Origin: a virus
Taxonomy: Duplodnaviria > Caudoviricetes
Reading direction: 5' to 3' (one strand)
Length of the DNA stretch: 53,499 nt
Virus record (IMG/VR): IMGVR_UViG_3300001041_000004
Coordinates: 1-53,499 of that record
Position 1 is the first letter of the stretch. The number at the start of each line of letters is the position of its first letter. This document shows, one piece after another, positions 5,128 to 45,061 of the stretch. Both the position numbers and the translations under genes were made by a program. The notes under the pieces are model-generated. The model had not been told where the DNA came from and searched no databases. It worked only from the letters and a program-made list of their open reading frames with translations.

Positions 5128-6299
5128 TGATTATGGCAATGGATTATTTAGTTGTATCGTATCCTAACTTTGTTTTGGGACAGATTATTGATCCTGAAGA
5201 AGCAAATCAAAACAATACAGATATTACAAGTAAAGTCAATGAAGTTGTTGATGGTGTTAATATAAATTATAGTGCTATTGCTAATCATAAGATAAGTACC
5301 GATCATAACACCTTGTATTACACTAAAACAGAAATTGACAGCAATCTATTAGTGTTTAGTACTAATGAAAATACAAGGGTTCAAAATGAATTACTCAGAG
5401 TACAACAAGAAGCACATCGTCAATTAACGTATACTGATTTTAACGTTGCTGAGACAACAAGGATTAACAACGAAATTATAAGACAAGCAACGTATTCTGA
5501 ATTTAACGATGATGAGTTGATTCGAATTGATAATGAGGTTGCTCGTCTTGCTTCTGAGGATGCTCGTCTTGCCTCTGAAGAGATTCGTTTAAACAGTGAA
5601 GCGTTGAGGGTTTTAGCAGAAGAGAATAGGGTTTTACAGGAGGCATTAAGAATTGCCGCACTTAATGTAACAACAGCTAATGTCAATTACTATATTGACG
5701 CTGTGCTTGGTAATGATGCTAATCTTGGTACAAGTGCTGGTGCTGGTGGTGCATTTAAAACAATTGGCAAAGCACTTTCTTTAATACCTCAAATTGTAAA
5801 TCATTCAATTAATATTTGGGTTGCCGCAGGAGATTATTCAAGTGAACTTTTTATAACCGTTAAGGGTAAAATTGGGTCTGGTATAATTAGTTTTTGGGGT
5901 GACGATAATGCCATTTATAAATACATCTCACTATCTAATAATTCTATTACGATTGTATTTGATAGTGGTCGGTTAAGTGGTATTACTGGTGCAATTATAG
6001 AGGTTGCTAATTGTAAAAAAGTTGCTCTTAGATATTTGAACTTTATTGGTGCATCAGGGATTGGACATGGGATTGTATGTGATAATAGCACAGTGTACTC
6101 TTATGCTTGTGCCATATCTAATAGACTTGGCAATGCTATATGGTGTAGTTATGGTCTTGTTATTAGTGATAATAATGGTGGTACAAGTAATAACGTATGT
6201 CTTTCCGCAGGTAGTGGTGGTACTATTGTTAAAATTGGAACACAACCTACTGGAACAACAGCTGAAAGTGTTTATTATGGTGGTCAAATTCGAGCTTAA
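5124..6299 (+). CDS. Tail spike/fibre with coiled-coil stalk and C-terminal beta-helix-like domain
   Basis: E-x2-R heptad-like repeats (ARLASED x2), 'YYIDAVLGNDAN...AFKTIGKAL' motif typical of beta-helix starts, Gly/Ser/Cys-rich C-terminus. Confidence 0.6.
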   Translation: MMIMAMDYLVVSYPNFVLGQIIDPEEANQNNTDITSKVNEVVDGVNINYSAIANHKISTDHNTLYYTKTEIDSNLLVFSTNENTRVQNELLRVQQEAHRQLTYTDFNVAETTRINNEIIRQATYSEFNDDELIRIDNEVARLASEDARLASEEIRLNSEALRVLAEENRVLQEALRIAALNVTTANVNYYIDAVLGNDANLGTSAGAGGAFKTIGKALSLIPQIVNHSINIWVAAGDYSSELFITVKGKIGSGIISFWGDDNAIYKYISLSNNSITIVFDSGRLSGITGAIIEVANCKKVALRYLNFIGASGIGHGIVCDNSTVYSYACAISNRLGNAIWCSYGLVISDNNGGTSNNVCLSAGSGGTIVKIGTQPTGTTAESVYYGGQIRA

Positions 6300-12300: not shown

Positions 12301-15300
12301 ACAATCAAAAAGGTCTTTTACAGAAAATTGCTGAATTAGAGAAGGAACGGATGCCTAAAGTTAACAAAGATATTGTTAAGATCAGACAACAGATTGCCGA
12401 GTTACAAAAGAAGATGGAAGTTCGTACTCCGGGTATTAGTAAAGATATGCGTACCAATTACACTCAAGCTGAACGTCAACGTGACTATGTTCAAGGGATT
12501 GAACGTGTTGAAGAAAAAGTTGATTACAAGAATCATTTCTTTAACAAGGCATTAGATTTTATGGCAACGGCTAAAGATGCTGAAGGTAAGCGTCTTATTC
12601 CTGATGTGAAGGCTATCTCTTCAGCTCACGTTGATTATGCTAATTTGATTGCTAATCAGATGGAATTGATTTTAAAGACGAAGCTTAAAGTTCCTTACCC
12701 TGAATTAACATCGGCTGAACAGAAGTGGTTGTTTCATATTGCCTTGAAGGATGTTGAATTACTCAAGAGTGGTAAACCAACGTTAAGCGGTTATGAAAAG
12801 GTGCTTGCCCATAAGGAAGAGATGGAACGAATCAAATGGATTAAGCGTGTTGTTAAGGAAGGATCTGAAGTACACGTTCTTAAAAGTGGTAAGCTTTATA
12901 TTGGTAAAGTACAAGACTTCCATCCTAACGCCACATATACCATCTTAACGCCTTCAGGAGTTAAAGTGGATGGAATCATACCGGGACAGATTAAGCGTGT
13001 CAACAAGACCACTTACAGCTTCTCTGATGACACTCTGATGGATGAGGTAGAGCGTGTTATTGGTGAGAGTATGATAAGTAAGCGATTTATTGATGAAATT
13101 GCTGAACATGAAGTAATGATGGATGAAGCTATGGCTAAGTTGGATGAACTGAGTATTGCTAAGAAGAGTGCTAAAAAGGAAGAGGTGCTAAAGTATAAAC
13201 AATCAGTTGAAGACGTTAAGCAGAGTAATGTAATTGATGATACTGCTTATCATATGGAAGTGGCTGAGAAGGTTGATGCGTTTGAAGCACGTGCCGCAAC
13301 ACGTGTTGCAGATCGAGAGGCTCTTGTTGAACGGTTACAAAAGCAGACAAATAATGTCAAAGCAAATATTGAAGAGTTAGAAATTAACCGATTAAGTCTT
13401 CAAGAAGAATTTAGAAGTGGTAATCTCTTTTATGACATGGATCAAATCACTGAAGATACCTTTATGATTGAGATGCATCAGAATAAATTAACAAGTCTTG
13501 AAGAACAACTTGATCACATTGGACGTGTTGATGATTCTATTGATGTGAAGTTACTTCCTGATAATCATAGAGTATTTAATGTAGATCATTTACCCAACGG
13601 TAAAGAGATTGATGAGTACTTTGATATTGCTAGGCAACATGGTTTTGATGGTGAGATTGAAAGGTTGTTTTTAGATGGGGCAAGTCGTGAAGAGGTTATA
13701 AAACGTATTAGTAATAAGGTTCCATTTAAAGATGCTGATAAATTTTATAAAACCAATCAAATGATTGATGCTGTCAAAAGAAAATATGGTCTTCAAGAAA
13801 AGGGTTCTGAAGGGTTTGATGTTTGGAAGAAGTATTATAATGATCCACTAATACGTCGTGAACAAGGTTTGTATTATGCTGAAGACATGATTAAGCGTGC
13901 TAAACGCAAACCACTCATAGAAGAACGTGATAAGTTAATTACTGAGATTGCTCGACTTCGTAAAGCCATTGAACCAGATGATGCTGTTTCTGCTATTGAT
14001 AGGAAGATTGAAGAGATTACTGCAAAGATGGCTAAGACTGAGGAATTACTTGCCAATAGTGATGCTTTTGAAACGTATATGAGGACTACGTTAGGTGAAG
14101 ATGAGTATTGGCGTGTCATTAAAGAGAATGATCCACAGATGGGTATGTTGATGTTAGACACAATGACTCATGTGGATGATAAGGTAAAGAATGCGGTTAA
14201 GTTACTTCGTGATGAGATGGATCGGATTGGTGTTGAAGAGATTAGTGTTGGTAAATTAAAACAAGAACAATTTGATGCATTCCTTGGTGAGTACCTTCCT
14301 CACATCGTAACAGCTGAAGGAAGTAAACTCTTTGAAATACTCTACAAACGTGATAAGAAAATGATTCCCTCCTTTGGTAAAGAGTTAGGGTATGGACGTA
14401 AATCGTTTAATCCTCATGGTCTTAGTAGAACAGCCGTTAATGTTTTTGATGAGTCGGGTAATCTTATTCATCACCCAACGATTGAACAAATCAATGAATA
14501 CTTTAAAAAGACTTATGCCAAAATCCTTAAAGGTAACAATGTCTTTTCAGACAACATCTTTGAAATCTATCAGACTCGGGCTATGAAGAATGTTGAGCTT
14601 ATGTATGATGTGAAGTACACCGATGAGATGTTAAACATTTTTGGTCATGAGTATAAGGGTGTTCAAGAGGCTGGGTACAAGACAGTCATGAACTATGGCA
14701 AAGTGAAAGAAGCGACACAAAATTATGCTAGGCTTAACATTGAGATGGAGATTAGTCGTGATGTGTCAGAGTGGATTATCAAAAATAACATTATGGATAA
14801 GGCTAAGATAAGTATTTCATCAACACCTCATGTGGATCGTGTAGCGTATAAGAGACATCTTAATCTTATTGTAGGTCGTCAAATATCAGAGTATACAGAG
14901 CGTACTTTTACTAAACCTGTACGTGATCAGATGTTTGAAGGTTATGCTAAATCCTTCTCAGGTCAAAGATTATCTGATTTGTCGATGCCTATGCTTGAGT
15001 TTGAAGATGAAGGTGTTTCTCTCATCAGTAAAGGATTTAGTGATGCACTTGATGATTACTTTATCCACATCAAAGAAAAACTAGGTAAGTTTGAAGTTGG
15101 GATGATGTATGAGTCTGGTATGAAAGTAACAAAAGAGGATGCTGAATTGTTAATGCAGGAGGTTAAGAGTCTCGATAAGGATGCATTTAGAAAACGTATT
15201 AATGAGTTGCTAGATGATGATTGGCTTGATGTTGTTGACAAAGAGAGAGTCACTTCCATCTTAGGTAAAGCGGATAAACTTGATGCTGTTTCCCCTCTAC

Positions 15301-16721
15301 AAATCAGACAAGTCAGTGATGCTATTACCCAAAAAGCAAATCAAGCACGTAAACTTCAAATTGCTAAGGATCAATCTCGCTTCTTACAACTCTTTGATAA
15401 GTACACTCACCTTATAAAATTGAACCAAACAACCATCCTCCCTTATTTTCACACACGTAACAAACTCTCCAACACCTTCCTCAACTGGTTAGGTACAGGA
15501 ACCGATGCTATGAACCCTGAGTTCCAAAAGCAAGCATGGCACGCTATGAGGAAAAAAGGTGATGCAGACGGTGTGTTGAAGATTACAAGTCCTGATGGTG
15601 TGGTACGTGAAATGTCATGGGGTGAGGTTTATAAGAAGGCCGAAGAGTATGGTGCAATTAACCGTGGCTTCTATGCAACTGAACTGGGTATTGATGGGAC
15701 TAAGAAGGTAAGTAATTGGAACCCTCTGGATGCAAAAGGATTTAAACCGTATCAAGTAGGTGGTAAGGTTGGTAGTTTTGTTGAAGGTCAAGATCGACTT
15801 ATTCACTTTGCCTCACAAGTAGGTCAAGGTAAGAGTTTTGAGGAAGCGGCTGAGAGTGCTAATAAGTTCCTCTTTGACTACTCAGATATTACACAGTTTG
15901 AAGCATCGGTTATGAAGCGTATAATACCTTATTACACGTGGTTAAGGAAGAATGGTGCCTTACAGTTAGAACAAATGCTTGAACAGCCTGAGAAGTACCA
16001 AATGGTGGCCAAGGTACAAAGTGGTGTTTCAAGTATGACGGCTGATGAGGATCGGGTAAACCCCTTCTTTGTCAATGACTTTGCACTGGATTGGATTCAA
16101 CTACCGTTTAGTATTACCAATCCTGAAGGTAAAGAAGAACCTGTTTTATGGAATCCTGCCATGCCGTTTATGGATGTAAGTCGCATACCCAATCCAATGC
16201 ACCCGATTGACTCATTGAAGAATCTGTTTACTCAAAGCAATCCACTTTTCAAGGTACCTCTTGAACAAATAGCCAATCGTAACGTCTTCTTTGATCAACC
16301 AATTGTTGATACAGATAAATGGAAGAGGACACAAAGTGGTCATGTAGCCGGGGAGACTAAGGGGAATCAAATCACGGATCGACTAGATCATGTAGGAAGT
16401 CAGCTTGGAGCGTATGGTGTTTTGTCAGGACTTAACAAGCGTGGTGCTGATTTAGGACTTCACGTACTCAATAGTACAACAGGCCTTAAGATGTTGAGTT
16501 ATGATTATGATAGGATTAAGTCAATGAAGATTGGTGAAATGATTAAAGAAGGTAAATGGGATAATGATACAATCTTTGATAAGATGTCTGATAAAGCGTT
16601 TCATCAGATGAGAAATGCTATTGAACGTAAATTAATGGAACTTAATCCTATACCGGGTGATTGGCAAAACGATCTAGAACAAGGTAAACCACTCGATGAT
16701 TCTTTCTTTGATGTGCCGTAA
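9375..16721 (+). CDS. Giant internal virion/ejection protein (2448 aa; large-polyvalent-protein-like C-terminus)
   Basis: N-terminal 'ADVALDPTTYATGG', long coiled coils, C-terminal 'FLFDYSDIT..E..MKRIIPYYTW' and 'NPLFKVPLEQIANRNVF' motifs typical of large podophage ejection proteins. Confidence 0.6.
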   Translation: MAWKPLTYKAYIGSNSYSNLYNNPLSYGEQTLSPELLAILRRNDNPDDDRYLDKGKRTTWNRAMSVLMGGAYTSAGFVKGAIDPNKGALEGAWEGVKAGNPFGGGYSRGETTYSDVLEELGWKPTTLAGKVVRGTLGFVADVALDPTTYATGGLSAIVRGTGKASAALHGTESIVKLGESVGVKTTGKVEDIATIGSALKDKLIQESVDQGYHITQATAEATRRSNKIMDDLYTSSRGMTLEKAVDVVRGTGLAKTPEEVIKDAHALMKNYNKTLGLRTNVGHTLSLANAPLGKKVFGKLADHELTITSVETLNKIGDATLAPAYAKLRNYIYGSKFGELFSPGSKLYKASRVNPEAVYHVFKQEDMARGLGMDRIKSIAFVNEKMKELGDLGLTPAEAKEVVELMQNKTVYSKVAQSFDFLKSQEAGFIKETLHASQVQKKQEINELLQQKKDLEHSRYIKEDDVIGYQLNTHKDILSDMKREYVQKLLDFDVSRLTDEKDIEAVLKLYEDHLASTDEVVRYTQEALTSLEKSHKDNLKALEVEFKSKINPLKSEVNAHQKKIIELQDAVKQDVLRKEEAERLATERIETERLTILDEYKKYSQMIEENKLNRNIKDEARQAKSNSITMGKEEFEQVTELEGILRPDGMALAKFKAIINVARRDGSVVKKQRKAINDFEASFPDWKKVEHLDSTEFFPPTVLKPKTVEEVIEKPVSHVGFVEKLSTYVYGKSDVISVATWKANLDDVAKFIEQGMSKEFIQNFIDGSKNFYNGKAGVIYPWVNAKLGIDSWKEAYTDVVKAIEKRAKDNPKQVMPNRDTLQMAELQKKALERQVLLAKFDDMTLSQVVKFVGRENELANAKLMDELGDMAYSQSKKADELDDFVNGYDKRREALRNDRLNDLSTINEGERKFAPHDYSKEIERLRKSINPPPEERIAMDERIAKYKKELEELRAQFVKADADEKSSILLKVKGGNNQKGLLQKIAELEKERMPKVNKDIVKIRQQIAELQKKMEVRTPGISKDMRTNYTQAERQRDYVQGIERVEEKVDYKNHFFNKALDFMATAKDAEGKRLIPDVKAISSAHVDYANLIANQMELILKTKLKVPYPELTSAEQKWLFHIALKDVELLKSGKPTLSGYEKVLAHKEEMERIKWIKRVVKEGSEVHVLKSGKLYIGKVQDFHPNATYTILTPSGVKVDGIIPGQIKRVNKTTYSFSDDTLMDEVERVIGESMISKRFIDEIAEHEVMMDEAMAKLDELSIAKKSAKKEEVLKYKQSVEDVKQSNVIDDTAYHMEVAEKVDAFEARAATRVADREALVERLQKQTNNVKANIEELEINRLSLQEEFRSGNLFYDMDQITEDTFMIEMHQNKLTSLEEQLDHIGRVDDSIDVKLLPDNHRVFNVDHLPNGKEIDEYFDIARQHGFDGEIERLFLDGASREEVIKRISNKVPFKDADKFYKTNQMIDAVKRKYGLQEKGSEGFDVWKKYYNDPLIRREQGLYYAEDMIKRAKRKPLIEERDKLITEIARLRKAIEPDDAVSAIDRKIEEITAKMAKTEELLANSDAFETYMRTTLGEDEYWRVIKENDPQMGMLMLDTMTHVDDKVKNAVKLLRDEMDRIGVEEISVGKLKQEQFDAFLGEYLPHIVTAEGSKLFEILYKRDKKMIPSFGKELGYGRKSFNPHGLSRTAVNVFDESGNLIHHPTIEQINEYFKKTYAKILKGNNVFSDNIFEIYQTRAMKNVELMYDVKYTDEMLNIFGHEYKGVQEAGYKTVMNYGKVKEATQNYARLNIEMEISRDVSEWIIKNNIMDKAKISISSTPHVDRVAYKRHLNLIVGRQISEYTERTFTKPVRDQMFEGYAKSFSGQRLSDLSMPMLEFEDEGVSLISKGFSDALDDYFIHIKEKLGKFEVGMMYESGMKVTKEDAELLMQEVKSLDKDAFRKRINELLDDDWLDVVDKERVTSILGKADKLDAVSPLQIRQVSDAITQKANQARKLQIAKDQSRFLQLFDKYTHLIKLNQTTILPYFHTRNKLSNTFLNWLGTGTDAMNPEFQKQAWHAMRKKGDADGVLKITSPDGVVREMSWGEVYKKAEEYGAINRGFYATELGIDGTKKVSNWNPLDAKGFKPYQVGGKVGSFVEGQDRLIHFASQVGQGKSFEEAAESANKFLFDYSDITQFEASVMKRIIPYYTWLRKNGALQLEQMLEQPEKYQMVAKVQSGVSSMTADEDRVNPFFVNDFALDWIQLPFSITNPEGKEEPVLWNPAMPFMDVSRIPNPMHPIDSLKNLFTQSNPLFKVPLEQIANRNVFFDQPIVDTDKWKRTQSGHVAGETKGNQITDRLDHVGSQLGAYGVLSGLNKRGADLGLHVLNSTTGLKMLSYDYDRIKSMKIGEMIKEGKWDNDTIFDKMSDKAFHQMRNAIERKLMELNPIPGDWQNDLEQGKPLDDSFFDVP

Positions 16722-27513: not shown

Positions 27514-28880
27514 TACACCTCATCCATTCTGCAAATATGCTTCGTGAACATGATGTTAATCGGATCACAATCACTGGCACCGTTGCGTTGATATTTTACC
27601 CAGAGTTGTTGATTACCATTGTTGAATCCATCCTTAGCTATTTTCTCATCGGACTTATTGGTGAGGAAGATGAGTTTACTAGCTAATTGAAGAATGCGGT
27701 ATGATCCACCGATGTTACTAGCATCCGGTGAATCAGTATCTAAGTCATTACGATTGGTTTGACAAGCAGAAAACACCGGTATCTTTAGAAGGCCGGCAAG
27801 GTCTTTTAGTCCTGATGTGAAGAATCCAAGGGCTTGATACTCTTGAGTTGACTTAAAATCTCCCTGATTTGAGGGGATTTTGATGTAGTCAAAGAAGAGT
27901 GCTTTAATCCCCATCTGCATAACGAATTTACGTGCTAAGGCTGTAACCTTTTCAATGGTGAAGTGCGGCATATAGATGTGGTAATAGTTACCCATACCTA
28001 AAGATTCACGTGCTACCTTTAGTTTAGCAATCTTATCTTCAGCCTTCCCATTGACAGTATCCAGCACATAGAGTCCTGAGATGATTTCTGAATGAGGTAT
28101 TCCAGTGAGGTTTGCAAGTATCCTGTCTTCCTGTTCACGTTCATTCATTTCTGTGTCAACATAAAGAATTGGCAATTGATCCTTAATGCCAATCTTCGTT
28201 CCCCAATTGGTGAGGACAATCGACTTACCAACCTTAGAGGGAGCACATACGATAATTAAATCACCATCGGATGCACCATTCGTTACACGGTCAAACTCTT
28301 CCCATCCAACTTCGAGTCCCGGTACTTGTGCAGGTGTCTCTGCTCTCTGTGCAAGTACCTCTTCCGTTTTGTTGCCCATTTTGTAGACTTCGTCGGTGGT
28401 TGTGGTGTTAACGGCAAGATCAGTAATCTTTGTGGTGACGAAGTTAATGAGTTCTGTAGGGTTGAGTACCTCTGCCCGATCCGATAAAACAAAATCACGT
28501 ACATTATCGGAAATTGACAGTAACATTCGTCGAGTATAACTTTGTTTAATCTTCTCAATAAAGATAGAAAGATTATCTGTAGGAATAATTGATTCCTCAA
28601 GAATGGTGAGATATTCTAACCCTCCTAACTCATCAACACTTTTTTTGGCTTGGTCATTGCTTAAAACTTCAAGGATTGCCATGGGTGTTGGTTTTATTTT
28701 TTTACCGTACAAATACATCATTGCCATAAAGATGAACTTGTGTCCCGGGATTCCAAAGTGTTCAGCGTAGATTTCATCGGCTTCTACGTCAATAATCTTA
28801 TCACTGTTCTTTAAACAGATCGAGATAACGTTTCTCTCGCTGCCCGGGTTAAAAACAAGGTCTTTTACATCATTAGCCAT
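27513..28880 (-). CDS. dnaB: Replicative DnaB-family helicase
   Basis: Walker A APSKVGKS, DTEM, FFDYI, CQTNR, KYQRNG; start placed at MANDVK. Confidence 0.93.
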   Translation of the reverse strand: MANDVKDLVFNPGSERNVISICLKNSDKIIDVEADEIYAEHFGIPGHKFIFMAMMYLYGKKIKPTPMAILEVLSNDQAKKSVDELGGLEYLTILEESIIPTDNLSIFIEKIKQSYTRRMLLSISDNVRDFVLSDRAEVLNPTELINFVTTKITDLAVNTTTTDEVYKMGNKTEEVLAQRAETPAQVPGLEVGWEEFDRVTNGASDGDLIIVCAPSKVGKSIVLTNWGTKIGIKDQLPILYVDTEMNEREQEDRILANLTGIPHSEIISGLYVLDTVNGKAEDKIAKLKVARESLGMGNYYHIYMPHFTIEKVTALARKFVMQMGIKALFFDYIKIPSNQGDFKSTQEYQALGFFTSGLKDLAGLLKIPVFSACQTNRNDLDTDSPDASNIGGSYRILQLASKLIFLTNKSDEKIAKDGFNNGNQQLWVKYQRNGASDCDPINIMFTKHICRMDEV

Positions 28881-29370
28881 AATATTGTACCTCTGCTTCT
28901 TTACGAGCTTGTAATGCACTTTCATATGATTCAAAACAACCTAATGAAATATCCTTATCATCAATATTAATGCGTGCTCTCCATTTTTTTAATTGTTTAG
29001 AGAAATTAACACCATATTGTTTTTTAGGATTTCTTCGGTTTTCTTTATGCGTACAAATTCGTAAATTATCATCGGTATTATCTAATTTATCATGGTTAAT
29101 GTGATCTACATCCATACCATCAGGTGCATTGGTAATTAGTCGATGTGAACGAATTTTACACTTTCCAATACGTCCAATGGCATAACCTTGAATTGTCAAA
29201 TTCCATGTCACATTAAGCAATTTATCTTTGTGAATTACACTTGCTTTCATGATACCTACACGTTGTCCATCTTTGTTTTTTAACTCGATGAACAAAATGT
29301 CACCACAGATGAACCACCTATTCTTTGTTGAATAGTTCATCAAATCGTTTTGAGTTTGGTTGAAGACCAA
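28873..29370 (-). CDS. HNH homing endonuclease with C-terminal AP2-like domain
   Basis: HR...VDHINHDKLDN...NLR...N; 'KWRARI...LGCF...A..AR..AE'; AT-rich insert between replication genes. Confidence 0.9.
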   Translation of the reverse strand: MVFNQTQNDLMNYSTKNRWFICGDILFIELKNKDGQRVGIMKASVIHKDKLLNVTWNLTIQGYAIGRIGKCKIRSHRLITNAPDGMDVDHINHDKLDNTDDNLRICTHKENRRNPKKQYGVNFSKQLKKWRARINIDDKDISLGCFESYESALQARKEAEVQYYG

Positions 29371-30356: not shown

Positions 30357-30633
30357 CTACCTTTCCGTAGGTGACAACAATGTGTTTTGGTTCCATACCA
30401 CTGATGTCAAGGAGTGTTGAGTCTTCACAATTTGTGCAGCACGTTTCGTCAAAGAGATTTGACGTATCTGCTTCCATCATTTCAAGATGTGCTTTCATGT
30501 TGGTGAGTTCACCTTTTTGCAAATAGGTGAAAAGGATAAGCTCATTAATTGAGGATTTTTCATTAAGCTTTGTGATGATCTTGTTAAGACAATCCGCATA
30601 CCCTTGGATGTAGTCATGTGTTAAGTTTGTCAT
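30349..30633 (-). CDS. Hypothetical protein
   Basis: GGAGG RBS; overlaps both neighbours. Confidence 0.6.
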   Translation of the reverse strand: MTNLTHDYIQGYADCLNKIITKLNEKSSINELILFTYLQKGELTNMKAHLEMMEADTSNLFDETCCTNCEDSTLLDISGMEPKHIVVTYGKVGV

Positions 30634-31141
30634 TAGTTACCTCCCAAAATAGTTTCTTGTAATTCACAACATCTAATCCATCAAGGATTCGATACTGTGG
30701 CTTCAATAACCTTTGGGATATTTTGGGATGATTTGGATTACCCACATAGGTTTGTACGGTGAATGGTTCAGTTTCTCTGTACTGTAACCTCTCTAACTCT
30801 TCAAGAGTTTTAAAATGAATGGGTGTTACGTTAACGTTGATTCTGTGATGAAGATCACACATATGGTTGCGAAGCATATTACTCATTGAACATGCATAAT
30901 AAGCATCCAATATACGTGAATAGAAATCAAAATCAGCACATTGGAATAACGCACCGTAAACAACAGAATTACCCCATGTCTTGCCGGGGTATTTGCACAT
31001 CAGGAAAACTGACTTGTTTTGATAATGGTGGTATAGATTACCTTTAACTATCCCAAAAGCGACGAATTGGATTGGTAATTGCATCGAGGAAATCAGAGTT
31101 GGGTCTAGGAGTTCATTCGTCAGAAACAGCAAGTTGTTCAT
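30614..31141 (-). CDS. Gamma-glutamylcyclotransferase (GGCT/AIG2)-like fold protein
   Basis: 'VVYGALF', 'ILDAYY', 'HHRINVNV', 'QTYV' follow GGCT-family spacing; the usual catalytic Glu is not seen. Confidence 0.5.
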   Translation of the reverse strand: MNNLLFLTNELLDPTLISSMQLPIQFVAFGIVKGNLYHHYQNKSVFLMCKYPGKTWGNSVVYGALFQCADFDFYSRILDAYYACSMSNMLRNHMCDLHHRINVNVTPIHFKTLEELERLQYRETEPFTVQTYVGNPNHPKISQRLLKPQYRILDGLDVVNYKKLFWEVTNDKLNT

Positions 31142-31717: not shown

Positions 31718-32827
31718 TTAAGAGTTTGCAATAGAATCCATGATACGTTTTCTGTAAGCATCATCATAAATTTCTCGATTTACAATTCGTAATTTACGAT
31801 TAATGATTTTGAAGTCAAGTATCCCTTCATTAATTCCTTCAATAATTGATTCCTCATCACCATTGTTGAACATATATCCTGTTACTGTAACACTTGGTGA
31901 ATCAACAAGTAGTATTTGTCTCTCTTTAAGACGTAACGAGTTACCGTTATCAAACCTTACATAAACAATAGCATCACCTTTGCTTTTAAGTGTTTTCCAT
32001 CGAGTTAAGTTTAAATTACTCGTTCCCAATTGATAAACATAACCGGCAGTTCCCTTTGCCGTTTCGTTAAGGTCTTTAAAAATACTTGATTCTGGGTCAA
32101 GGCAAACACGCATTCCAATAAGTATTGGCATTGCGTATCGATCATCTTGTGTAAATGGTATTGGTGATTTGATAATATCCTCTCCTTTCTCGATGATATT
32201 TAACATTCCCTTTCGGTAGATGTTATTGTGTCCATTACTCCACCTTACCCTAACCCATCCTTCTGTTTCAATTTCTGTGACGGTTCCATTATCACCCTTG
32301 TGTTGGTATTTGAATTGATTATAATCTTTATGATTTCGGTTTGGTGATACTTTATCACCTACATTAAAATCATCAAATGATTCCATAGGTAATTCTTCCT
32401 TTCTAAATTTCTCAATAGCATCTTTAAGATTTTCATGGGTGAAGGCACCTGTTTGATGGTTGTTAAATAATGGTACTTCAGCACATGGATTTGGTGCAAA
32501 AATCCAATCGTTATTTGGATTTTTTATATACAAACCCATGTCTTCTTCTAGTTTTTCGAATTGTTCACGTGTTTGTACATTTGGTCCAACACCGGATGTC
32601 ATGGGTATATGATTACGTCCTGCATGTATTACTTCCAACGCATCACATTTGTAATTACGTGAATCATCACCATCATCCCAACACACTTTAACCCACTCAT
32701 CAGGCCCTAAATTTATTGGATATTGTTCAATTACCGTACCCTGTTGATTTGTTTGTGATGGTTCATTATAAAGACCACGCATTGGATGGTCTTGTTTAAA
32801 CCTTACACGTGTACCGATAGTTAGCAT
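31718..32827 (-). CDS. Protein with three SH3-like (MIB/HERC2-like) repeats
   Basis: Three copies of G(T/D/M)(R/K)V...G(T/Y)V...(W/Y)V.V.(W/F)..G; starts 1 nt after the E1 stop. Confidence 0.6.
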   Translation of the reverse strand: MLTIGTRVRFKQDHPMRGLYNEPSQTNQQGTVIEQYPINLGPDEWVKVCWDDGDDSRNYKCDALEVIHAGRNHIPMTSGVGPNVQTREQFEKLEEDMGLYIKNPNNDWIFAPNPCAEVPLFNNHQTGAFTHENLKDAIEKFRKEELPMESFDDFNVGDKVSPNRNHKDYNQFKYQHKGDNGTVTEIETEGWVRVRWSNGHNNIYRKGMLNIIEKGEDIIKSPIPFTQDDRYAMPILIGMRVCLDPESSIFKDLNETAKGTAGYVYQLGTSNLNLTRWKTLKSKGDAIVYVRFDNGNSLRLKERQILLVDSPSVTVTGYMFNNGDEESIIEGINEGILDFKIINRKLRIVNREIYDDAYRKRIMDSIANS

Positions 32828-32828
32828 T

Positions 32829-33500
32829 TTACCACCTCTGTGTAATTAAATTGTTGAACTTGAAATCAATGAGGATTTCGTTATCCAATTCCACTTTGTT
32901 GTGGAAATTGATGAGTTGGCGTACACACCAAGAGACAACACCAAAAGATGATGAGATGACACTGAGTGATGTTCCACAGGCACTCACCTCAGTACCTTCA
33001 TCCGAGTAATAGGTTTTCTCATATTCTCTGATGTGAGTTAAGTCCATCGGGTCAACGTTATACACTCGTCCCACATCAAGTCCAAGTCTTGGTTCAATAA
33101 GGTGTTTGACAGCTGATTTCATTTTAATGCTGCCTTCCCAAATACGTTTGCGTTCAGCCATACTGTCCACCATGAGAAAGACAATACCTGATAATTTCTC
33201 ATCAACATAAGCTTCATCTTTAATTCTAATGCGTGTTCCTGTTGCTCTGAGTACTTCTTCTGCAATTGCATGTGCCTTTGTTTCGTTGATATTTAATAAT
33301 GCAAATGCTTGATTTGGGATGTTGTGTTCCTCCACGGTATCAAAGTCCCACACAGTAATATCCGTAATGCCAAGTTTGGCTAAGGCCAATGCTAACCATG
33401 AGCCAGTACTACCAGCACCAATGATCGTTACTGGATGCTTAAAATCATGGGGTTCAAATAAATCTTGATGGCGTGAGATGTTTAGGTTGTGTTGTGCCAT
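32829..33500 (-). CDS. ThiF/E1-like adenylyltransferase (ubiquitin-like activating enzyme)
   Basis: N-terminal SRHQD arginine, IIGAGSTGS, DFDTVEEHNIPNQ, VDSMAER, candidate catalytic Cys in SACG; no Zn-binding CxxC pairs. Confidence 0.92.
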   Translation of the reverse strand: MAQHNLNISRHQDLFEPHDFKHPVTIIGAGSTGSWLALALAKLGITDITVWDFDTVEEHNIPNQAFALLNINETKAHAIAEEVLRATGTRIRIKDEAYVDEKLSGIVFLMVDSMAERKRIWEGSIKMKSAVKHLIEPRLGLDVGRVYNVDPMDLTHIREYEKTYYSDEGTEVSACGTSLSVISSSFGVVSWCVRQLINFHNKVELDNEILIDFKFNNLITQRW

Positions 33501-33512
33501 AATGTATTCCTC

Positions 33513-34574
33513 CTATTTCATTTCTTTTCCTGAGTAAATTGCAAACAGATAACGTTTGCCAAAATCCCATACTAATCCAAGATCACGTTGGTTGAAGTAG
33601 TTGTAATAACCAAATCCAACCAATGTTCTTTCTACCTCAATTAGTGTAGTACATTCACCTATTTCAAGCAAGATGTCTTGATCAAGGATTTCTACAATGG
33701 ATTGATCATCTGTGAAGATGTTGCCAAAACTACTGTCACCTTTTCTTCTTTGATTGATTTTTGTTTCGGCATCCTTTCTTAGTTTCCATGCTTTTTCATC
33801 CAGTTCATCCCACGATTTATTAGGTTTAATAGTCTGTGTAACCGTAGTCGAGGTCGTCCCAGATTGCTTGTTGTGCTGATGGTTTCCAACGTTGGTTCCT
33901 TTGGTTAAGGTTTTGGGGATGGTTGTAAGTGGTAATTGTTGTTTTTTTTTTACCTTTAACAACAGCTCTGTTTTGATGGCTGTTTCATAGTGAGCTAACC
34001 GATTCTTTTGATAGGTTTCCAATTGAAGTTCAAGATCAAAGATAGCTTGTGTAATCTTTTCCTCATCAGGCGAGATAACTTCATCCCATGGTAAGTCAGA
34101 CCAAATGATTCCATGTTCATAATCATAGAGATCAACACGTAATGAACCACTTTTGTTGGCAATGATACGGACAAACCAATCATGTCCAGTGGTTGCAAAA
34201 AATTCCATTTGGTTATCGTCTTGACCACTTGGGCCGGTGGGCATGTTAACGTGGCTATGTCCCCATACCTTTAGGTTATTCCAAATCTCCATACCATTTG
34301 GATTGGCTAGAATTGCTTCACCAAAAGTACTGAGTCCTTCGGGTGTTATCTCTGTGGTTGTGGAGTGAACTTCTTGATCAAACAAGTACATATCAACGAT
34401 CTTAATAACGTTACCTTGTTTATAGGCAGTACCTAACCAACCGACTTCATCGGTGGAGTTGGCAACATAGAGTTGCATTTTATCAACCGCATCAGCATTG
34501 ATCATGATTTCAGGCATACATCGTTCCAAAACCTTCACAGTCGCTTTCGTTTTAGATTCTTTAAAATAAGCCAT
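33513..34574 (-). CDS. JAB/MPN+ (JAMM) metallopeptidase with long C-terminal extension
   Basis: DEVGW...WGHSHVNMPTGPSGQD matches the E...HxH-x7-S-x2-D JAMM motif. Confidence 0.88.
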   Translation of the reverse strand: MAYFKESKTKATVKVLERCMPEIMINADAVDKMQLYVANSTDEVGWLGTAYKQGNVIKIVDMYLFDQEVHSTTTEITPEGLSTFGEAILANPNGMEIWNNLKVWGHSHVNMPTGPSGQDDNQMEFFATTGHDWFVRIIANKSGSLRVDLYDYEHGIIWSDLPWDEVISPDEEKITQAIFDLELQLETYQKNRLAHYETAIKTELLLKVKKKQQLPLTTIPKTLTKGTNVGNHQHNKQSGTTSTTVTQTIKPNKSWDELDEKAWKLRKDAETKINQRRKGDSSFGNIFTDDQSIVEILDQDILLEIGECTTLIEVERTLVGFGYYNYFNQRDLGLVWDFGKRYLFAIYSGKEMK

Positions 34575-34585
34575 TACTTTCCCTC

Positions 34586-35911
34586 CTAATCTTTGTAAAC
34601 ATCTTTGATGTATTCTTCAATATCATCATCCCAATGATATGCATCATCCCTACAATTTTGGCAAACACTGTGTTCACCTTGTAAGTCATCGTTTTCATCA
34701 ATATAATTGAAGACAGTATACAAATTTTCAACAGATTCACTACAATCGTCACACGTGTATAATTGTATTTGATCCTTTGGAATTGGGATGTTGTTTTCAT
34801 CCACTTCATCCCAACGAATAACGTTTTCTCCGGCAGAGTCGTCCGTATTAGCTGATTCTAAGAAGTCAATACCAATGAGTGCCAAGGCATAGATTTGCAT
34901 TTGACTCGATAATTCGGCAATGGTTGATGAGACATTGCCAAGGCAAGCATGACCATCGCTTCCATTAACATGTGGGTGGGGATCGTTATGTGTCCAAAGT
35001 CCACGACGTGTGTTGTTGCCAAAGAAACGAATGTCTGATTGATCTGGGTCAAGTTCAAATCGATACTCACCACCGTAATAACGTTTACCTTTGGTAGATG
35101 TTATTATTAGTGGATAGGTATAGACAATGAATTTACCGCTCTTGATCTTGAGGTCTTTGACTTTTGGATGATTGATAATTAAGTCCAAATCTTGAATAAG
35201 TCCAAGAGAAACATTCTTCAGATTTTCAGTTTCTACTTGAACAAATCGTCGCTTGACACCGATTGAGTCAGAATTTGTCTTAATGGAACGTGCATAATCA
35301 CGAATTTGATTTTCAAGAGTTTGAATTGCTTCCTTAGCTTGTCTCAATTCTCGTTCCTTTTGTTCCTCTAATTTTTTAGTAAACGAACGAGTAAGAGCAT
35401 CTTTATCAGATGTGAACTTCCATGAATCTTGGAGTGATTTTACATACCAAACTTGTTCATTCCACTTCTGCATAATGTGGGTGAACGCATCAATGGATTG
35501 TTGGTTGTACTCTTTGAAGATGTTAAAAAGGATGTTGAGTTCATGAGTTTTTTCACTCCATTCAGCAATTGGTAACCCACCTTCAGAAGTTATGATGAGG
35601 GTATCTTTATTGATGGGTTCTATGAACCGAGTGAATCCAAAGTATTCATCATCTTCTACATTATTAACAACCATCGGTGCTTCACCAGTAAATGTGGCAT
35701 TAGCAAAGATACAGACTCGACGTCCTATTGATCCTGCACCATTGTTATGGACTTCTTCCCTCAGATTATAAAGATCAACGTCTTGAATGTTGAGTTCTGC
35801 AACTTGATTGCGTATGATTTGTGGAAGTTCATTTCTGAATTGATTGTGTTCACCTCGGTTGGCACCTAAAAACGTTTTGTAATCATGGATGCTGATTGTG
35901 TTTATTGGCAT
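34586..35911 (-). CDS. Multidomain prokaryotic E2-like (Ubl-conjugating) protein
   Basis: 'PHPHVNGSDGHACLGN' parallels the UBC HPN...ICL active site; central coiled coil; C-terminal CxxC...CxxC and acidic tail. Confidence 0.75.
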   Translation of the reverse strand: MPINTISIHDYKTFLGANRGEHNQFRNELPQIIRNQVAELNIQDVDLYNLREEVHNNGAGSIGRRVCIFANATFTGEAPMVVNNVEDDEYFGFTRFIEPINKDTLIITSEGGLPIAEWSEKTHELNILFNIFKEYNQQSIDAFTHIMQKWNEQVWYVKSLQDSWKFTSDKDALTRSFTKKLEEQKERELRQAKEAIQTLENQIRDYARSIKTNSDSIGVKRRFVQVETENLKNVSLGLIQDLDLIINHPKVKDLKIKSGKFIVYTYPLIITSTKGKRYYGGEYRFELDPDQSDIRFFGNNTRRGLWTHNDPHPHVNGSDGHACLGNVSSTIAELSSQMQIYALALIGIDFLESANTDDSAGENVIRWDEVDENNIPIPKDQIQLYTCDDCSESVENLYTVFNYIDENDDLQGEHSVCQNCRDDAYHWDDDIEEYIKDVYKD

Positions 35912-36081
35912 TGTATTGCCTCCTTAGTTTAGTTTGGTGTAGGTTTATGCTCTACGTGATGCACACTTACTTCATCAAAGTTACCACGTCTAGTAACTCA
36001 GCTTTTCTTTGTGCATCACGTAAAGCACACCTCATAAGTGTGCTTTACATTTAGTATATTATTAAGAATGATTATTAAATA

Positions 36082-36306
36082 CTAATTGCTATTCCCTTTT
36101 ACCTGTTTGGCAAGAATGATCAGATTGGTATTCTGTGTAACATACGTGCCGTTCAAATCAGTGACAGCATTACCATCCACTTTGACGTCAAACCCTTGGG
36201 CAGAAAGTCCTGCTAATTCGATAACTTGAGCAATGCTTGCACCAACCTCAACGACATACTCACTGATTTTACCCGGCATTTGACCTACGCGAATTGTTTT
36301 TTCCAT
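36082..36306 (-). CDS. Ubiquitin-like (beta-grasp) protein, 74 aa
   Basis: MEKTIRVGQMPG...GASIAQVIELAGLS...VKVDG...LIILAKQVKGNSN has beta-grasp spacing; KG followed by a 3-aa tail; GAAGGA RBS. Confidence 0.78.
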   Translation of the reverse strand: MEKTIRVGQMPGKISEYVVEVGASIAQVIELAGLSAQGFDVKVDGNAVTDLNGTYVTQNTNLIILAKQVKGNSN

Positions 36307-36403
36307 GTGATTGTTTCCTTCTTTCATCATTCATTTTATTAGGGATAAGGCATTGAGATGGCACCTCGCAGGATACCACTTATCTCATAAGCCATAGTTT
36401 AAT

Positions 36404-37435
36404 TTACTTCATGAGTAACATTAGCATCAATGGATCAATTGCACCGGCAGTTGCCGCTCCACCTAATCCACCACCCAGTAACATAAGAGGTAATAAATCT
36501 TTCATTGAGGAGTTGCCGCTTTCCTTATCACCCAACAGAGACATTAAGAGTAGTGGATTGTTTGCAATGCCACCAGAAGCCCCTGCTTGGCCTCCTAAGC
36601 CACCAGACAGCATGAGTAAGGGTAACATGTCGCCGAAGTCACTTGAACCGTCCTTAGACAGCATCATAAGCATCATAGGATTGATGGCAGGAGGTGTTGC
36701 AACAATAACTGGGTTGCCATCTTTGTCGAACAGTTCAGCCATAGCAGGAGCGGTTTGTGCAGAAAATAGAGATTGAACTTTGTAATAAAAGTTGATCCCG
36801 AAGAGGTTGGTTTCTTTGCAGATGGTGGATTTTGTTCCTTTGTTCAAATTGATACCAGAGATGGAACCATTCGTGTTGATATCGAGGACTTGGTAGTAGT
36901 CACCTTTGAATTTGATGACATCAGTAGGGACAACAGCCGTTACAGGCAAGATGAAAATCATATCCGATGCCTCTTTGATGACGAGAGACATTTGATTCAC
37001 GATTTGTCCAAGAGCGGCATCATAGGAGGCATACTCATCAGCTGAGCGGCGAATCGCAATTTGACCACCAAAGGTTAAAGCAACCTCACCGTTTTTCACT
37101 TTGCCAAACTCTCCAAATAATTTGCTAACATTCATGCTAATTCCTTCTTTCTTTTCATTTTTAGGTTGTGTTGATGATGAAACCTTCCCAACAAAATCAT
37201 CTCTCACGTATTCACAATTGGGAGTTTGTGGTACGCGTGGTACACTGGCACAGTTTATGGTTTGGTATTTTGGCTTACTTACTGGGACAACGGGCTCTAT
37301 TTCGAGCAGATCAGAACTTGGCACATCATAGTAACCAACCTTCCCATACACTGTAAATGTGGTAGGTGTTACTTGATCTGCAATGACGACGTTTTCATTG
37401 GTTGAAATGCAATAGACTTTTTCTCCAACTTTCAT
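36404..37435 (-). CDS. Hypothetical protein with C-terminal Gly-rich (N/D/L)P-L/M-rich repeats
   Basis: AGGAGG RBS; repeats NPMMLMML, MLPLLML, NPLLLMSL, LLPLMLL, DPLMLMLL. Confidence 0.75.
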   Translation of the reverse strand: MKVGEKVYCISTNENVVIADQVTPTTFTVYGKVGYYDVPSSDLLEIEPVVPVSKPKYQTINCASVPRVPQTPNCEYVRDDFVGKVSSSTQPKNEKKEGISMNVSKLFGEFGKVKNGEVALTFGGQIAIRRSADEYASYDAALGQIVNQMSLVIKEASDMIFILPVTAVVPTDVIKFKGDYYQVLDINTNGSISGINLNKGTKSTICKETNLFGINFYYKVQSLFSAQTAPAMAELFDKDGNPVIVATPPAINPMMLMMLSKDGSSDFGDMLPLLMLSGGLGGQAGASGGIANNPLLLMSLLGDKESGNSSMKDLLPLMLLGGGLGGAATAGAIDPLMLMLLMK

Positions 37436-44539: not shown

Positions 44540-45061
44540 ATGGCAATACCATATGAGCAACGTGTTGGTGAAAAAATTAATAAGCTCAAAATTTTGGAAC
44601 TTATTGGTAAACGTCATAATGGTCATAGAGTTAAGATAATGTGTTTGGTTGAATGTGAATGTGGTACAAAGTTTGAAACTTTAATTGAAAGTGTTGTTAG
44701 TGGTCAAACAACTAGTTGTGGATGTAATCGTAAAAAACACGGTAATTCTGCTCAAAGAAAAATGTATAATAATTATAAAAATGGTGCTAAAAGTAGAGGG
44801 TATTCTTTTGAATTAACTCAAGAAGAGTTTGTTTTTATTTCATCGTCTTATTGTCATTATTGTGGTGCCGAACCATCTAATGTTAAAGAAATGTATGGTG
44901 ATACTTTTGTTATAAATGGTATTGATCGTATGGATAATACAATTGGTTACACAATAGGTAATTCTTTACCTTGTTGTTCTATTTGTAATCGTGCTAAGGG
45001 TATTCTTTCTTATGATGATTTTTTAGGTTGGATTGAGGCGATAAAAGAATGGCAAAGTTAA
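44540..45061 (+). CDS. HNH endonuclease (Cys-rich, homing type)
   Basis: CECG, SCGC, CHYCG, GIDRMDNTIGY..GN..PCCSICN.AK; AT-rich; own TGTTATAAT extended -10 just upstream. Confidence 0.85.
   Translation: MAIPYEQRVGEKINKLKILELIGKRHNGHRVKIMCLVECECGTKFETLIESVVSGQTTSCGCNRKKHGNSAQRKMYNNYKNGAKSRGYSFELTQEEFVFISSSYCHYCGAEPSNVKEMYGDTFVINGIDRMDNTIGYTIGNSLPCCSICNRAKGILSYDDFLGWIEAIKEWQS

Follow-up and report, generated by a model that had tools for sequence, protein, structure and literature searches.

Bacterial systems of ubiquitin-type conjugation, namely Bil, Bub and type II CBASS (cyclic oligonucleotide-based antiphage signaling system), have been described as host systems, with Bil and CBASS directed against phages. 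BilABCD (Bacterial ISG15-like, Types I and II) corresponds to operon types 6d/6c of Iyer et al. 2006, and in both Bil and Bub, a JAB peptidase trims the precursor of the ubiquitin-like protein (Ubl) before its conjugation by E1 and E2 (PMC10557695, PMC11601596). The phage case described by Iyer et al. 2006 is a Ubl-JAB pair of tail-assembly genes (PMC1779556). These statements and the comparisons below follow the available portions of the respective sources (Bil: PMC10557695, 10.1101/2023.09.04.556158; Bub: PMC11601596, 10.1101/2024.11.21.623966). A full-text literature search, with subscription journals mostly outside its scope, yielded no paper on a phage-encoded Ubl-E1-E2-JAB cascade. Here we analyze a cassette of five genes that encode the predicted components of such a cascade in IMGVR_UViG_3300001041_000004. 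This entire stretch of 53,499 bp, hereafter the window, represents a phage genome in full; it is bounded by direct terminal repeats (DTR), and its completeness is estimated at 100%. The five genes encode a Ubl, an E2-like protein (E2L), a predicted JAMM peptidase (JAB), a ThiF-type E1 and a protein with SH3/MIB-HERC2-like domains (Table 1).

An earlier note, made from the sequence without database searches, had read these genes as a complete conjugation operon. The minus-strand open reading frames (ORFs) are present where the note placed them, with gaps of 11, 12 and 1 bp between the genes for E2L, JAB, E1 and the 369-aa SH3/MIB-HERC2-like protein, and 170 bp between those for Ubl and E2L. All motifs quoted in the note were recovered: ...AKQVKGNSN in Ubl; HPHVNGSDGHACLGN in E2L; EVGWLG...HSHVNMPTGPSGQDD in JAB; and GAGSTG, DFDTVEEHNIPNQ and SACG in E1. 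The survey of synteny across phages that the note had proposed revealed the order Ubl-E2L-JAB-E1 in all 11 related loci (10 viral contigs and one contig of a metagenome-assembled genome (MAG); individual loci are denoted L002 and so on), an arrangement that is far beyond chance. Identities across these loci fall to 27% for E2L and 40% for E1, and the preservation of gene order down to 27% E2L identity fits vertical inheritance of the cassette as one functional unit. The related viral loci were found with an E2L alignment as the query; a single E2L protein query found none.

Four features distinguish the cassette, a conserved and unannotated system: it resides in a virus, its E1 is minimal, its E2-like proteins form a separate family, and its tandem tags are complete copies with Gly-Asn ends. 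It belongs to the core of a large phage lineage with genomes of ~50 kb and Clostridia-type hosts. It is not a Bil, Bub, CBASS, PRTRC or sulfur-carrier set, since it lacks at least one defining feature of each. On balance, the cassette probably encodes a working ubiquitin-type conjugation cascade that would be employed in the phage's own cycle.

Like the cassette, Bil consists of separate Ubl, E2, JAB and E1 genes, with a Cys in both E1 and E2, and its Ubl has a conserved near-terminal Gly followed by extra residues, which in Bil are removed by the JAB (PMC10557695). However, E1 of Bil is built from several domains (IAD-AAD-CYS; PMC11601596), whereas that of the cassette consists of one adenylation domain; in E2 of Bil, the Cys is followed by a conserved His (CEHH; PMC10557695), whereas E2L has an HPH motif before the Cys and no invariant His after it; and Bil is a bacterial defence system, whereas the cassette is a fixed module of phage genomes. 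Bub (6E/DUF6527) shares with the cassette the cleavage, here predicted, of a Ubl precursor by a JAB (BubAB by BubCD in Bub) and the common occurrence of tags with multiple beta-grasp domains. In contrast to the cassette, with its invariant C175 of E1 and C323 of E2L and its separate genes, the Bub E1 and E2 have no catalytic Cys and employ Tyr/Ser oxyesters, and the peptidase is fused to E1 (PMC11601596). Type II CBASS also combines E1-like and E2-like activities with a JAB, and the adenylation domain of Cap2 is a significant relative of the phage E1, but Cap2 is an E2-E1 fusion and the 'Ubl' is the C-terminus of the CD-NTase, whereas the cassette has separate genes and a true beta-grasp tag. 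Furthermore, Cap2 and BubB lack the last two helices (PMC11601596), whereas the helices after the Cys are kept in the E2L model.

Searches with models of these systems agree with this separation. No PADLOC model matches Ubl, E2L or JAB; the PADLOC CBASS E1-E2 models match E1 at up to 5e-11, in the Rossmann part only. SMODS, the only CD-NTase family tried, had no match in the genome. The PRTRC_ThiF model gave 35.2 bits on E1, against a cut-off of 144.75, and no PRTRC model matched Ubl, E2L or JAB (ParB was not searched for). Sulfur carrier systems (ThiS or MoaD with ThiF or MoeB) and MccB resemble the cassette in that a ThiF-fold enzyme acts on a C-terminal carboxylate, and in the sulfur systems, the carrier is a beta-grasp protein as well. 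Here, however, an E2-like Cys protein accompanies the tag, poly-Ubl genes occur, and the partner enzymes of sulfur carriers are missing. In the whole genome, there was no match to MoaE, ThiG, rhodanese, the cysteine desulfurase family Aminotran_5 or PALP, although each was detected in 11 to 14 of 14 control genomes, which bears out the absence of thiamine, molybdenum cofactor and cysteine-synthesis genes stated in the earlier note. Finally, eukaryotic polyubiquitin resembles the phage tags in its head-to-tail copies, each with the full C-terminal motif, the last of them often carrying a short cap. The cassette differs from the eukaryotic E2s and polyubiquitin in the lack of a detectable relation of E2L to UQ_con, the replacement of the second Gly by Asn, a minimal ThiF-like E1, and the location of the E2-like domain within a 441-aa multidomain protein.

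The tandem tag and its Gly-Asn end

The ORF of the tag extends from the first ATG as 36082..36330 (82 aa); however, the gene starts at 36306 and encodes the 74-aa protein of the earlier note, because the homologues begin with MEKT... and an AAGGA sequence is located ~9 nt upstream. The check named in advance for this protein was a beta-grasp fold, and this fold was recovered. The AlphaFold model (built from a 17-row alignment; predicted local distance difference test (pLDDT) 90.2) has the order strand-strand-helix-strand-strand-strand (bb-a-bbb) and a loose tail (aa 68-74; mean pLDDT 51 for the last block), and its best matches are ubiquitin, SUMO and ISG15 as well as MoaD, BubA and ThiS. A Foldseek search with the model returned 11 PDB chains of the ubiquitin/SUMO/ISG15 type at E<=0.001, the top rows being ubiquitin, SUMO, ISG15 or NEDD8. 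The wide, unbiased VIA search placed MoaD first (Z 9.1, root-mean-square deviation (rmsd) 2.1, 70 residues aligned), with further matches to BubA (Z 8.3), ThiS (7.7), SAMP1 (7.6) and a Bil Ubl (7.2). At the sequence level, the Ubl of the window had no match in Pfam, PHROGs, PADLOC or NCBIfam, and its profile retrieved only chance or coiled-coil matches among the PDB sequences. A homologue that is 62% identical to it (P0077) passes the Pfam SAMP2 threshold (31.5 bits against a cut-off of 27), the sole one to do so among eight scanned.

A profile search with the Ubl detected 450 relatives at E<=0.001. Copies and ends were counted in 126 proteins, 117 of the 120 listed relatives and 9 other homologues; this list is tilted to multi-copy proteins, the scores of the copies adding up. 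Among the matches listed, 62 of the 126 proteins contain three Ubl copies, 60 contain two and 4 contain one. Among the related loci, Ubl-Ubl-X fusions are encoded in L006, L008, L010 and L011, and a triple Ubl in L012. Each copy is complete, as in polyubiquitin, so that a protease must separate them, and the presence of two or three complete copies fits a consumed reagent, as with polyubiquitin, rather than a catalytic sulfur carrier. In L008 (5649-6059) and L006 (5952-6323), the K-G-N of the second copy runs directly into a further ~130 residues that end in a coiled-coil-like part; these segments are candidates for cargo released by the JAMM cut.

All 310 copy ends have the sequence [KR]-G-N, mostly QVKGN, with an invariant Asn. 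The protein ends exactly at this Asn in 63 of the 126 relatives and at the Gly in none; the remaining ones have 1 to 5 residues past the Asn, apart from one with a 14-residue tail. The Ubl of the window belongs to those with a short extension and ends in ...QVK-G71-N72-SN. At the 182 internal junctions, the residue after the Asn is Ala in 92, Ser in 50 and Gly in 17 cases (together 159/182). The statement of the earlier note that the JAB would expose the Gly is not borne out by these counts. Either the Asn serves the JAMM enzyme as a strict P1' residue, or it forms the C-terminus of the mature tag, and the conservation of the copy ends suggests that the mature end may be the Asn. In Bil, by comparison, the residues after the Gly of the Ubl are not conserved (PMC10557695). 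A tentative scheme, plausible but not the one we would bet on, is that the JAMM enzyme cuts after K-G-N, the mini-E1 activates the Asn carboxylate, and the tag passes via Cys175 and Cys323 to its targets.

A stable hairpin is predicted 0-55 nt after the Ubl stop codon in the window and in L003, L004, L006, L007, L008 and L012, with dG of -15 to -22 kcal/mol in a 50-nt window (figures without a shuffle control). It is a possible attenuator or RNA end. The hairpin and the poly-Ubl genes suggest that more tag than enzyme is produced, which fits a tag that is consumed.

The E2-like protein, the JAMM peptidase, E1 and the fifth protein

The model of E2L (pLDDT 88.3) consists of an a/b domain (aa 1-160), a 77-residue helix or coiled coil (aa 170-246), a UBC-like domain composed of a sheet and helices (aa ~250-370) and a C-terminal zinc ribbon with four Cys (aa 385-436). 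In the pdb_via search of VIA, all 50 rows shown were E2 entries, with Z of 6.8-7.6, rmsd of 3.1-4.6 and 95-152 aligned residues (about 117), and these matches span residues 228-381 of the model and nearly the whole E2 chain. In the wide VIA search of 48,161 chains, which is not led by Foldseek, ranks 1 and 2 were occupied by E2S (Z 7.2) and UbcH10 (Z 7.0); all 10 rows that cover aa 226-378 of E2L were E2s, and 39 of the other 40 match the long helix only. Seven residues, W306, D310, H312, P313, H314, C323 and G325, which comprise the signature HPH-x8-C-x-G, are invariant in 36 of 36 E2L sequences, and H312-P313-H314 and C323 are invariant also in a second set (9/9). After C323, the invariant columns include G325, A332, E333 and L334, with no His among them. 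The HPH-x8-C-L-G stretch of E2L resembles the HPN-x8-C-L stretch of eukaryotic E2s.

Judging from the models, E2L very probably contains a UBC fold with an active-site Cys, and we file it as E2-like rather than as a member of a named E2 family. The corresponding claim of the earlier note thus holds for the predicted fold and for the invariant HPH...C, whereas no E2 family profile matches the protein. The E2L of the window had no match in Pfam (E<=0.01), PHROG, NCBIfam or PADLOC, and phmmer found nothing. Its homologues form 72 clusters, none with a Pfam domain, which come mostly from short or ~50-kb contigs, two of them in Dehalobacter assemblies; similar viral proteins in BFVD are all 'uncharacterized'. 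A profile of the UBC-like domain detected 2,977 representatives at E<=0.001, of which 1,326 also pass a threshold of 1e-10 and 225 one of 1e-30. A complex prediction for E1 and aa 228-380 of E2L gave ipSAE values of 0.02 and 0.03, compared to a mark of 0.32, and weighs neither way.

The flanking parts of E2L are more variable. In the zinc ribbon, C387, C390 and C420 are invariant and C417 is present in at least 90% of 36 sequences; in the model, the second CxxC opens a helix (418-424), so the ribbon appears treble-clef-like. The ribbon is absent in L005 and multiplied in L006 and L008. A Pfam scan of 113 E2L relatives gave no match above the cut-off and two sub-threshold DZR matches. Both the N- and the C-terminal parts vary among the loci, the N-terminal domain being swapped for other domains in L006-L009. 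In the window, the Foldseek matches of this domain (aa 1-160; 35432-35911, minus strand), to class I glutamine amidotransferases, are weak (E 0.012-0.03) and name no fold.

The JAMM motif of JAB, E43 and H106-S-H108-x7-S116-x2-D119, is invariant in all eight sequences compared, in agreement with the peptidase claim of the earlier note, and on the strength of this motif, we accept the 353-aa protein as a predicted JAMM enzyme. The JAMM domain (aa 1-165) is followed by a helical stretch and a variable C-terminal part, and part of this C-terminal region is encoded by a separate small ORF in L002-L004. In the ESM Atlas, the nearest neighbours of JAB are viral clusters, one of which is named 'JAB domain-containing', with PF14464 in 23% of its members (score 0.95, template modelling (TM) score 0.78); we treat these neighbours as a lead.

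E1 passes the Pfam ThiF threshold (1.9e-12; 47.3 bits against a cut-off of 28.1). Across eight sequences with identity down to 38%, the invariant residues are R10, G28-A-G-x-T-G33, D52-F-D54, N60, N63-Q64, D112, R117 and Cys175 in the E-x-S-A-C-G motif, so that the assignment to ThiF/E1 stands together with its nucleotide-binding motifs and the Cys. The protein is a single adenylation domain, with no separate Cys domain, rhodanese domain or N-terminal clamp. Its profile matched 46 PDB sequences at E<=0.001; the best is 9egb (ThiF-type), and the solved relatives include PaaA (6.6e-9), MccB (1.5e-7), Cap2 (7tsx; 2.8e-6), BubCD (1.4e-5), TcdA, ThiF, UBA3, UBA5, MoeB, Uba4 and SAE2. These matches cover the Rossmann half only (query 16-106) and therefore do not tell to which branch of the E1 enzymes the protein belongs. 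The best NCBIfam matches are ThiF models, all far under their cut-offs.

The fifth protein was described in the earlier note as a triple-repeat SH3 adaptor. Its repeat 2 (aa 153-214) matches phrog_9469 (2.8e-12) and, at aa 177-208, Pfam MIB_HERC2 (4.7e-8; 33.3 bits against a cut-off of 33.5). Repeat 1 (aa 4-56) matches phrog_2827 in the whole-protein scan (2e-5) and cross-matches repeat 2 via the L002 and L003 homologues. Repeat 3 is a by-eye pattern with no library match and no self-match, and a blastp self-comparison of the protein revealed no internal repeat. Of the proposed triple repeat, then, the second unit is solid and the first supported, whereas the third, without a match, is a possible one. 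The SH3/MIB-HERC2-like nature of the domains stands too, but homologues are encoded right after E1 only in L002-L004, the three closest of the 11 loci, and the adaptor role is a conjecture. The ESM Atlas model of the protein has a poor pLDDT of 0.53, and with TM scores <0.3, the matches of this model to Mind-bomb ligases are leads at most. In L012, a 69-aa SH3-patterned ORF follows E1, and the E2L proteins of L006, L008, L010 and L011 are headed by an SH3-patterned domain. These heads are only weakly similar to the domains of the 369-aa protein (blastp E 0.003) and match different PHROGs. We rejected the 'fusion' of such a head to E2L as proof of a link to the 369-aa protein, the heads of L006 and L008 matching phrog_4317 instead. 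By analogy, the 369-aa protein is a candidate target-recognition partner, because its domain is used in eukaryotic E3 ligases.

Genome context and spread

The plus-strand arms of the window genome carry the terminase, portal, capsid and lysis genes, and the minus-strand region at ~16.7-42.4 kb encodes a DnaB-like helicase, primase, DNA polymerase, ribonucleotide reductase, dUTPase, exonuclease, RusA and a single-stranded DNA-binding (SSB)-like protein, as indicated by PHROG scans. All five genes of the cassette lie within this replication arm, consistent with their placement in the early/middle arm by the earlier note.

Table 1. Features of the cassette in the window (coordinates are positions in the 53,499-bp genome)
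Feature	Coordinates	Strand	Basis
Ubl, 74-aa beta-grasp protein, single copy	36082..36306	-	Homologue starts, AlphaFold model, structure searches
Hairpin, 11-bp stem, 7-nt loop, 34 nt past the Ubl stop, before E2L	36020..36048	-	Folding
E2L, 441 aa	34586..35911	-	Model, alignment; AAGGAGG ribosome-binding site upstream
UBC-like domain of E2L	34802..35164 (motif 34934..34984)	-	Structure searches, invariant columns
Zinc ribbon of E2L (C387, C390, C417, C420)	34604..34759	-	Alignment, model
JAB, 353 aa, predicted JAMM domain aa 1-165	33513..34574	-	Invariant motif
E1, 223 aa, single-domain ThiF-type	32829..33500	-	Pfam ThiF, invariant columns
SH3/MIB-HERC2-like protein, 369 aa	31718..32827	-	Pfam, PHROG

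Downstream of the cassette, a small helix-turn-helix protein is encoded in 6 of the 11 related loci, and a 175-aa protein and an SSB-like protein in 10 of 11 each. The 175-aa protein (30614-31141, minus strand, in the window) has no Pfam or PHROG match and shows 32-58% identity across the loci; it belongs either to the cassette or to the replication block only. Directly upstream of Ubl, a 343-aa protein (36404-37435, minus strand) with no family match contains Gly/Leu/Met-rich repeats in its C-terminal third (LPLLMLSGGLGG...) and is kept at the same place in L002 and L003 (42% identity). In L005, three tandem paralogous ORFs of ~100 aa (5076-6151; phrog_7488) are located directly upstream of Ubl, and in the L002 provirus only, a 160-aa ORF that looks to be of the homing-endonuclease type (1641-2123) lies between Ubl and E2L. 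The window genome also encodes two HNH-type endonucleases, one (28873-29370, minus strand) between the helicase and the SSB-region genes and the other (44540-45061, plus strand) before the large terminase. A 2,448-aa ORF in the structural arm (9375-16721, plus strand) matched no PHROG at E<=1e-5 and possibly encodes a giant protein, either of the virion or internal.

Among 185,579 species, each represented by one genome, a single real relative was found, on a 49-kb Romboutsia MAG contig with the same phage gene order. A second candidate, L013 in an Ilumatobacteraceae MAG, was rejected because the 22-aa motif is matched there by chance, in an out-of-frame ORF of 66 aa from a genome of high GC content. 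In 50,697 GenBank phage records, there was no match to the locus by megablast and none to E2L by tblastn; tblastn with the JAMM domain found none either. The stretch itself was found in 4 DNA sequencing runs, from one study labelled as groundwater metagenome, which is possibly its source; no RNA run was listed.

The earlier note called the phage lytic. No tyrosine integrase or resolvase was found in the window genome; however, the relatives L002 and L004, of the Dehalobacter type, come from IMG/VR 'provirus' records with a tyrosine integrase, and the records of L006 and L011 are without one. Some members of the lineage are thus temperate and others apparently not, and the cassette is a fixed feature of either group.

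A tblastn search with E1 as the query retrieved 41 GenBank phage records (28-32% identity), in which the protein is annotated 'thiamine biosynthesis protein (ThiF)'. Most of these phages infect Flavobacterium psychrophilum and belong to the FpV4 group or are jumbo phages of Xanthomonas and Erwinia. The ThiF proteins of FpV4 and the Xanthomonas phages match the E1 profile over nearly the full length of the profile, including the Cys (112.9 and 98.4 bits). In FpV4, gp49-gp53 are, in this order, a protein in which ...KQVKSGG is followed by a long tail, a 420-aa protein, a protein with the JAMM motif HSH-x7-S-x2-D, E1 and a 362-aa protein. Xanthomonas phage PhiXhv-12 encodes an 892-aa protein with IHPHM...GSLCLGS ahead of E1, as well as a 140-aa protein that terminates in GG. 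The tags of these phages end in G-G rather than G-N, and the phages differ in size and host. By profile comparison, their E2-like, JAB and Ubl proteins show no significant similarity to those of the window (2.9 bits, 10.3 bits and none, respectively), and we consider these cassettes to be analogues and leads only.

Proposed role of the cascade and alternative explanations

In the conjugation cascade that we favour, the Ubl would be made from its own ribosome-binding site, in most relatives as a head-to-tail precursor of two or three copies, and the JAMM peptidase would cut it at K-G-N into monomers with a free C-terminus. The mini-E1 would then adenylate the C-terminus of the Ubl and take the tag onto Cys175, located at the place of the crossover loop, from which it would be passed to Cys323 in the UBC-like domain of E2L. 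With its coiled coil, variable N-terminal domain and zinc ribbon, E2L would act together with the SH3/MIB-HERC2-like partner to attach the Ubl to lysines of one or a few targets in the replication phase, and the JAMM enzyme would possibly also strip the tag. All chemical steps are inferred, as are the timing, the targets and the part played by the SH3-like protein; our guess is that a host factor is a somewhat likelier target than the phage's own proteins. Host takeover or counter-defence, the purpose put forward in the earlier note, is a candidate role.

Several results weigh against this reading. The Z values of E2L are middling by the standard of the tool itself; Foldseek gave no PDB match at E<=0.001, only weak E2 rows such as 2bf8_A (probability 0.96, TM by target 0.51); the E2L profiles detected no E2 among the PDB sequences, but coiled-coil or chance matches only; and nine UBC-like domain sequences matched no Pfam family even at E<=10. 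C323 is equated with the catalytic Cys of E2s by its motif. The Pfam Prok-JAB match is below threshold in 5 of 8 JAB members (best E 0.013), with 14 bits against a cut-off of 25 for the JAB of the window, and the JAB profile retrieved no solved JAMM structure from the PDB sequences. Furthermore, the invariant Asn after the Gly is unexpected for a Gly-terminated Ubl, and Ubl, E1 and JAB occur together also in sulfur-transfer neighbourhoods (Iyer et al. 2006, PMC1779556).

The best surviving alternative, which we nevertheless regard as unlikely, retains Ubl conjugation but makes it a weapon between phages, by which structural proteins of a competitor would be tagged, in superinfection exclusion or as a lysogen defence carried by a prophage. 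There is a precedent in Bil, which conjugates its Ubl to the central tail fibre of a phage and blocks assembly (10.1101/2023.09.04.556158). A prophage-borne defence would make sense in L002 and L004, the provirus records of which contain an integrase, and variation of the N- and C-terminal parts of E2L among the loci is expected of a target-recognition module in an arms race. However, the place of the cassette within the replication block is fixed in all 11 loci, among them DTR genomes that have no integrase, whereas defence cargo is usually patchy and located at variable sites, and the silence of PADLOC on Ubl, E2L and JAB also argues against a weapon.

It is very unlikely, in our estimation, that the Ubl is a sulfur carrier, the thiocarboxylate of which would serve cofactor, nucleotide or DNA/tRNA modification, with the JAB trimming it and E2L in another role. 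This explanation draws on the first rank of MoaD and the high rank of ThiS among the structural matches of the Ubl, on the name 'sulfur carrier protein ThiS' that the Joint Genome Institute (JGI) annotation gives to several homologues, on the sub-threshold NCBIfam ThiF matches of E1, and on sets of JAB, E1 and ThiS/MoaD-like proteins in sulfur assimilation neighbourhoods (Iyer et al. 2006, PMC1779556). The absence of the five donor and acceptor families and the G-N rather than G-G end of the tag speak against it; poly-Ubl genes are ill-suited to a carrier that is recycled as a catalyst, and a UBC-like protein with an invariant Cys is always encoded next to the tag. Least probable is a MccB-like reaction, in which E1 would adenylate the terminal Asn and form a succinimide on the way to a nucleotide-linked or modified Ubl or peptide (a toxin or signal), without any conjugate: MccB acts on a peptide ending in Asn, the Asn is present at all 310 copy ends and terminates half of the 126 proteins, and MccB and PaaA are among the best solved relatives of E1, but the PDB matches cover the shared Rossmann part, in which the scores of ThiF, UBA3, UBA5 and Cap2 are similar, the alignment to MccB begins only at its residue 112-115 and the 223-aa E1 has no room for the N-terminal peptide-clamp, the invariant Cys of E1 and of E2L would be left without a role, and the substrate is a folded 70-aa beta-grasp protein, not a short peptide.

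If the cassette is indeed a conjugation cascade serving the phage's own cycle, then, in comparison with the host systems, a virus carries the complete cascade as a conserved core. The E2L family, with thousands of metagenome members, is nearly absent from bacterial genomes, which raises the question of what the phage tags: proteins of the host, its own or those of rivals. The polyubiquitin-like genes with complete copies touch on the origin and the chemical limits of ubiquitin-type systems, as does the active-site stretch of E2L, which is closer to eukaryotic E2s than what the available texts describe for Bil, Bub and Cap2. Bench tests are possible in the cultured phages of the FpV4 group and the Xanthomonas jumbo phages, in which analogous cassettes are present under a wrong annotation. 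Cleavage by trypsin after the Lys of K-G-N would leave Gly-Asn (~+171 Da) or Gly (~+57 Da) on the target lysines, a direct proteomic handle on the targets, and one mass spectrum could settle the Gly-Asn end. If the mature tag does end in Asn, it would be the first modifier of the E1/E2 type to be attached through a non-glycine residue, and a phage 'polyubiquitin' would be a core of the infection cycle.

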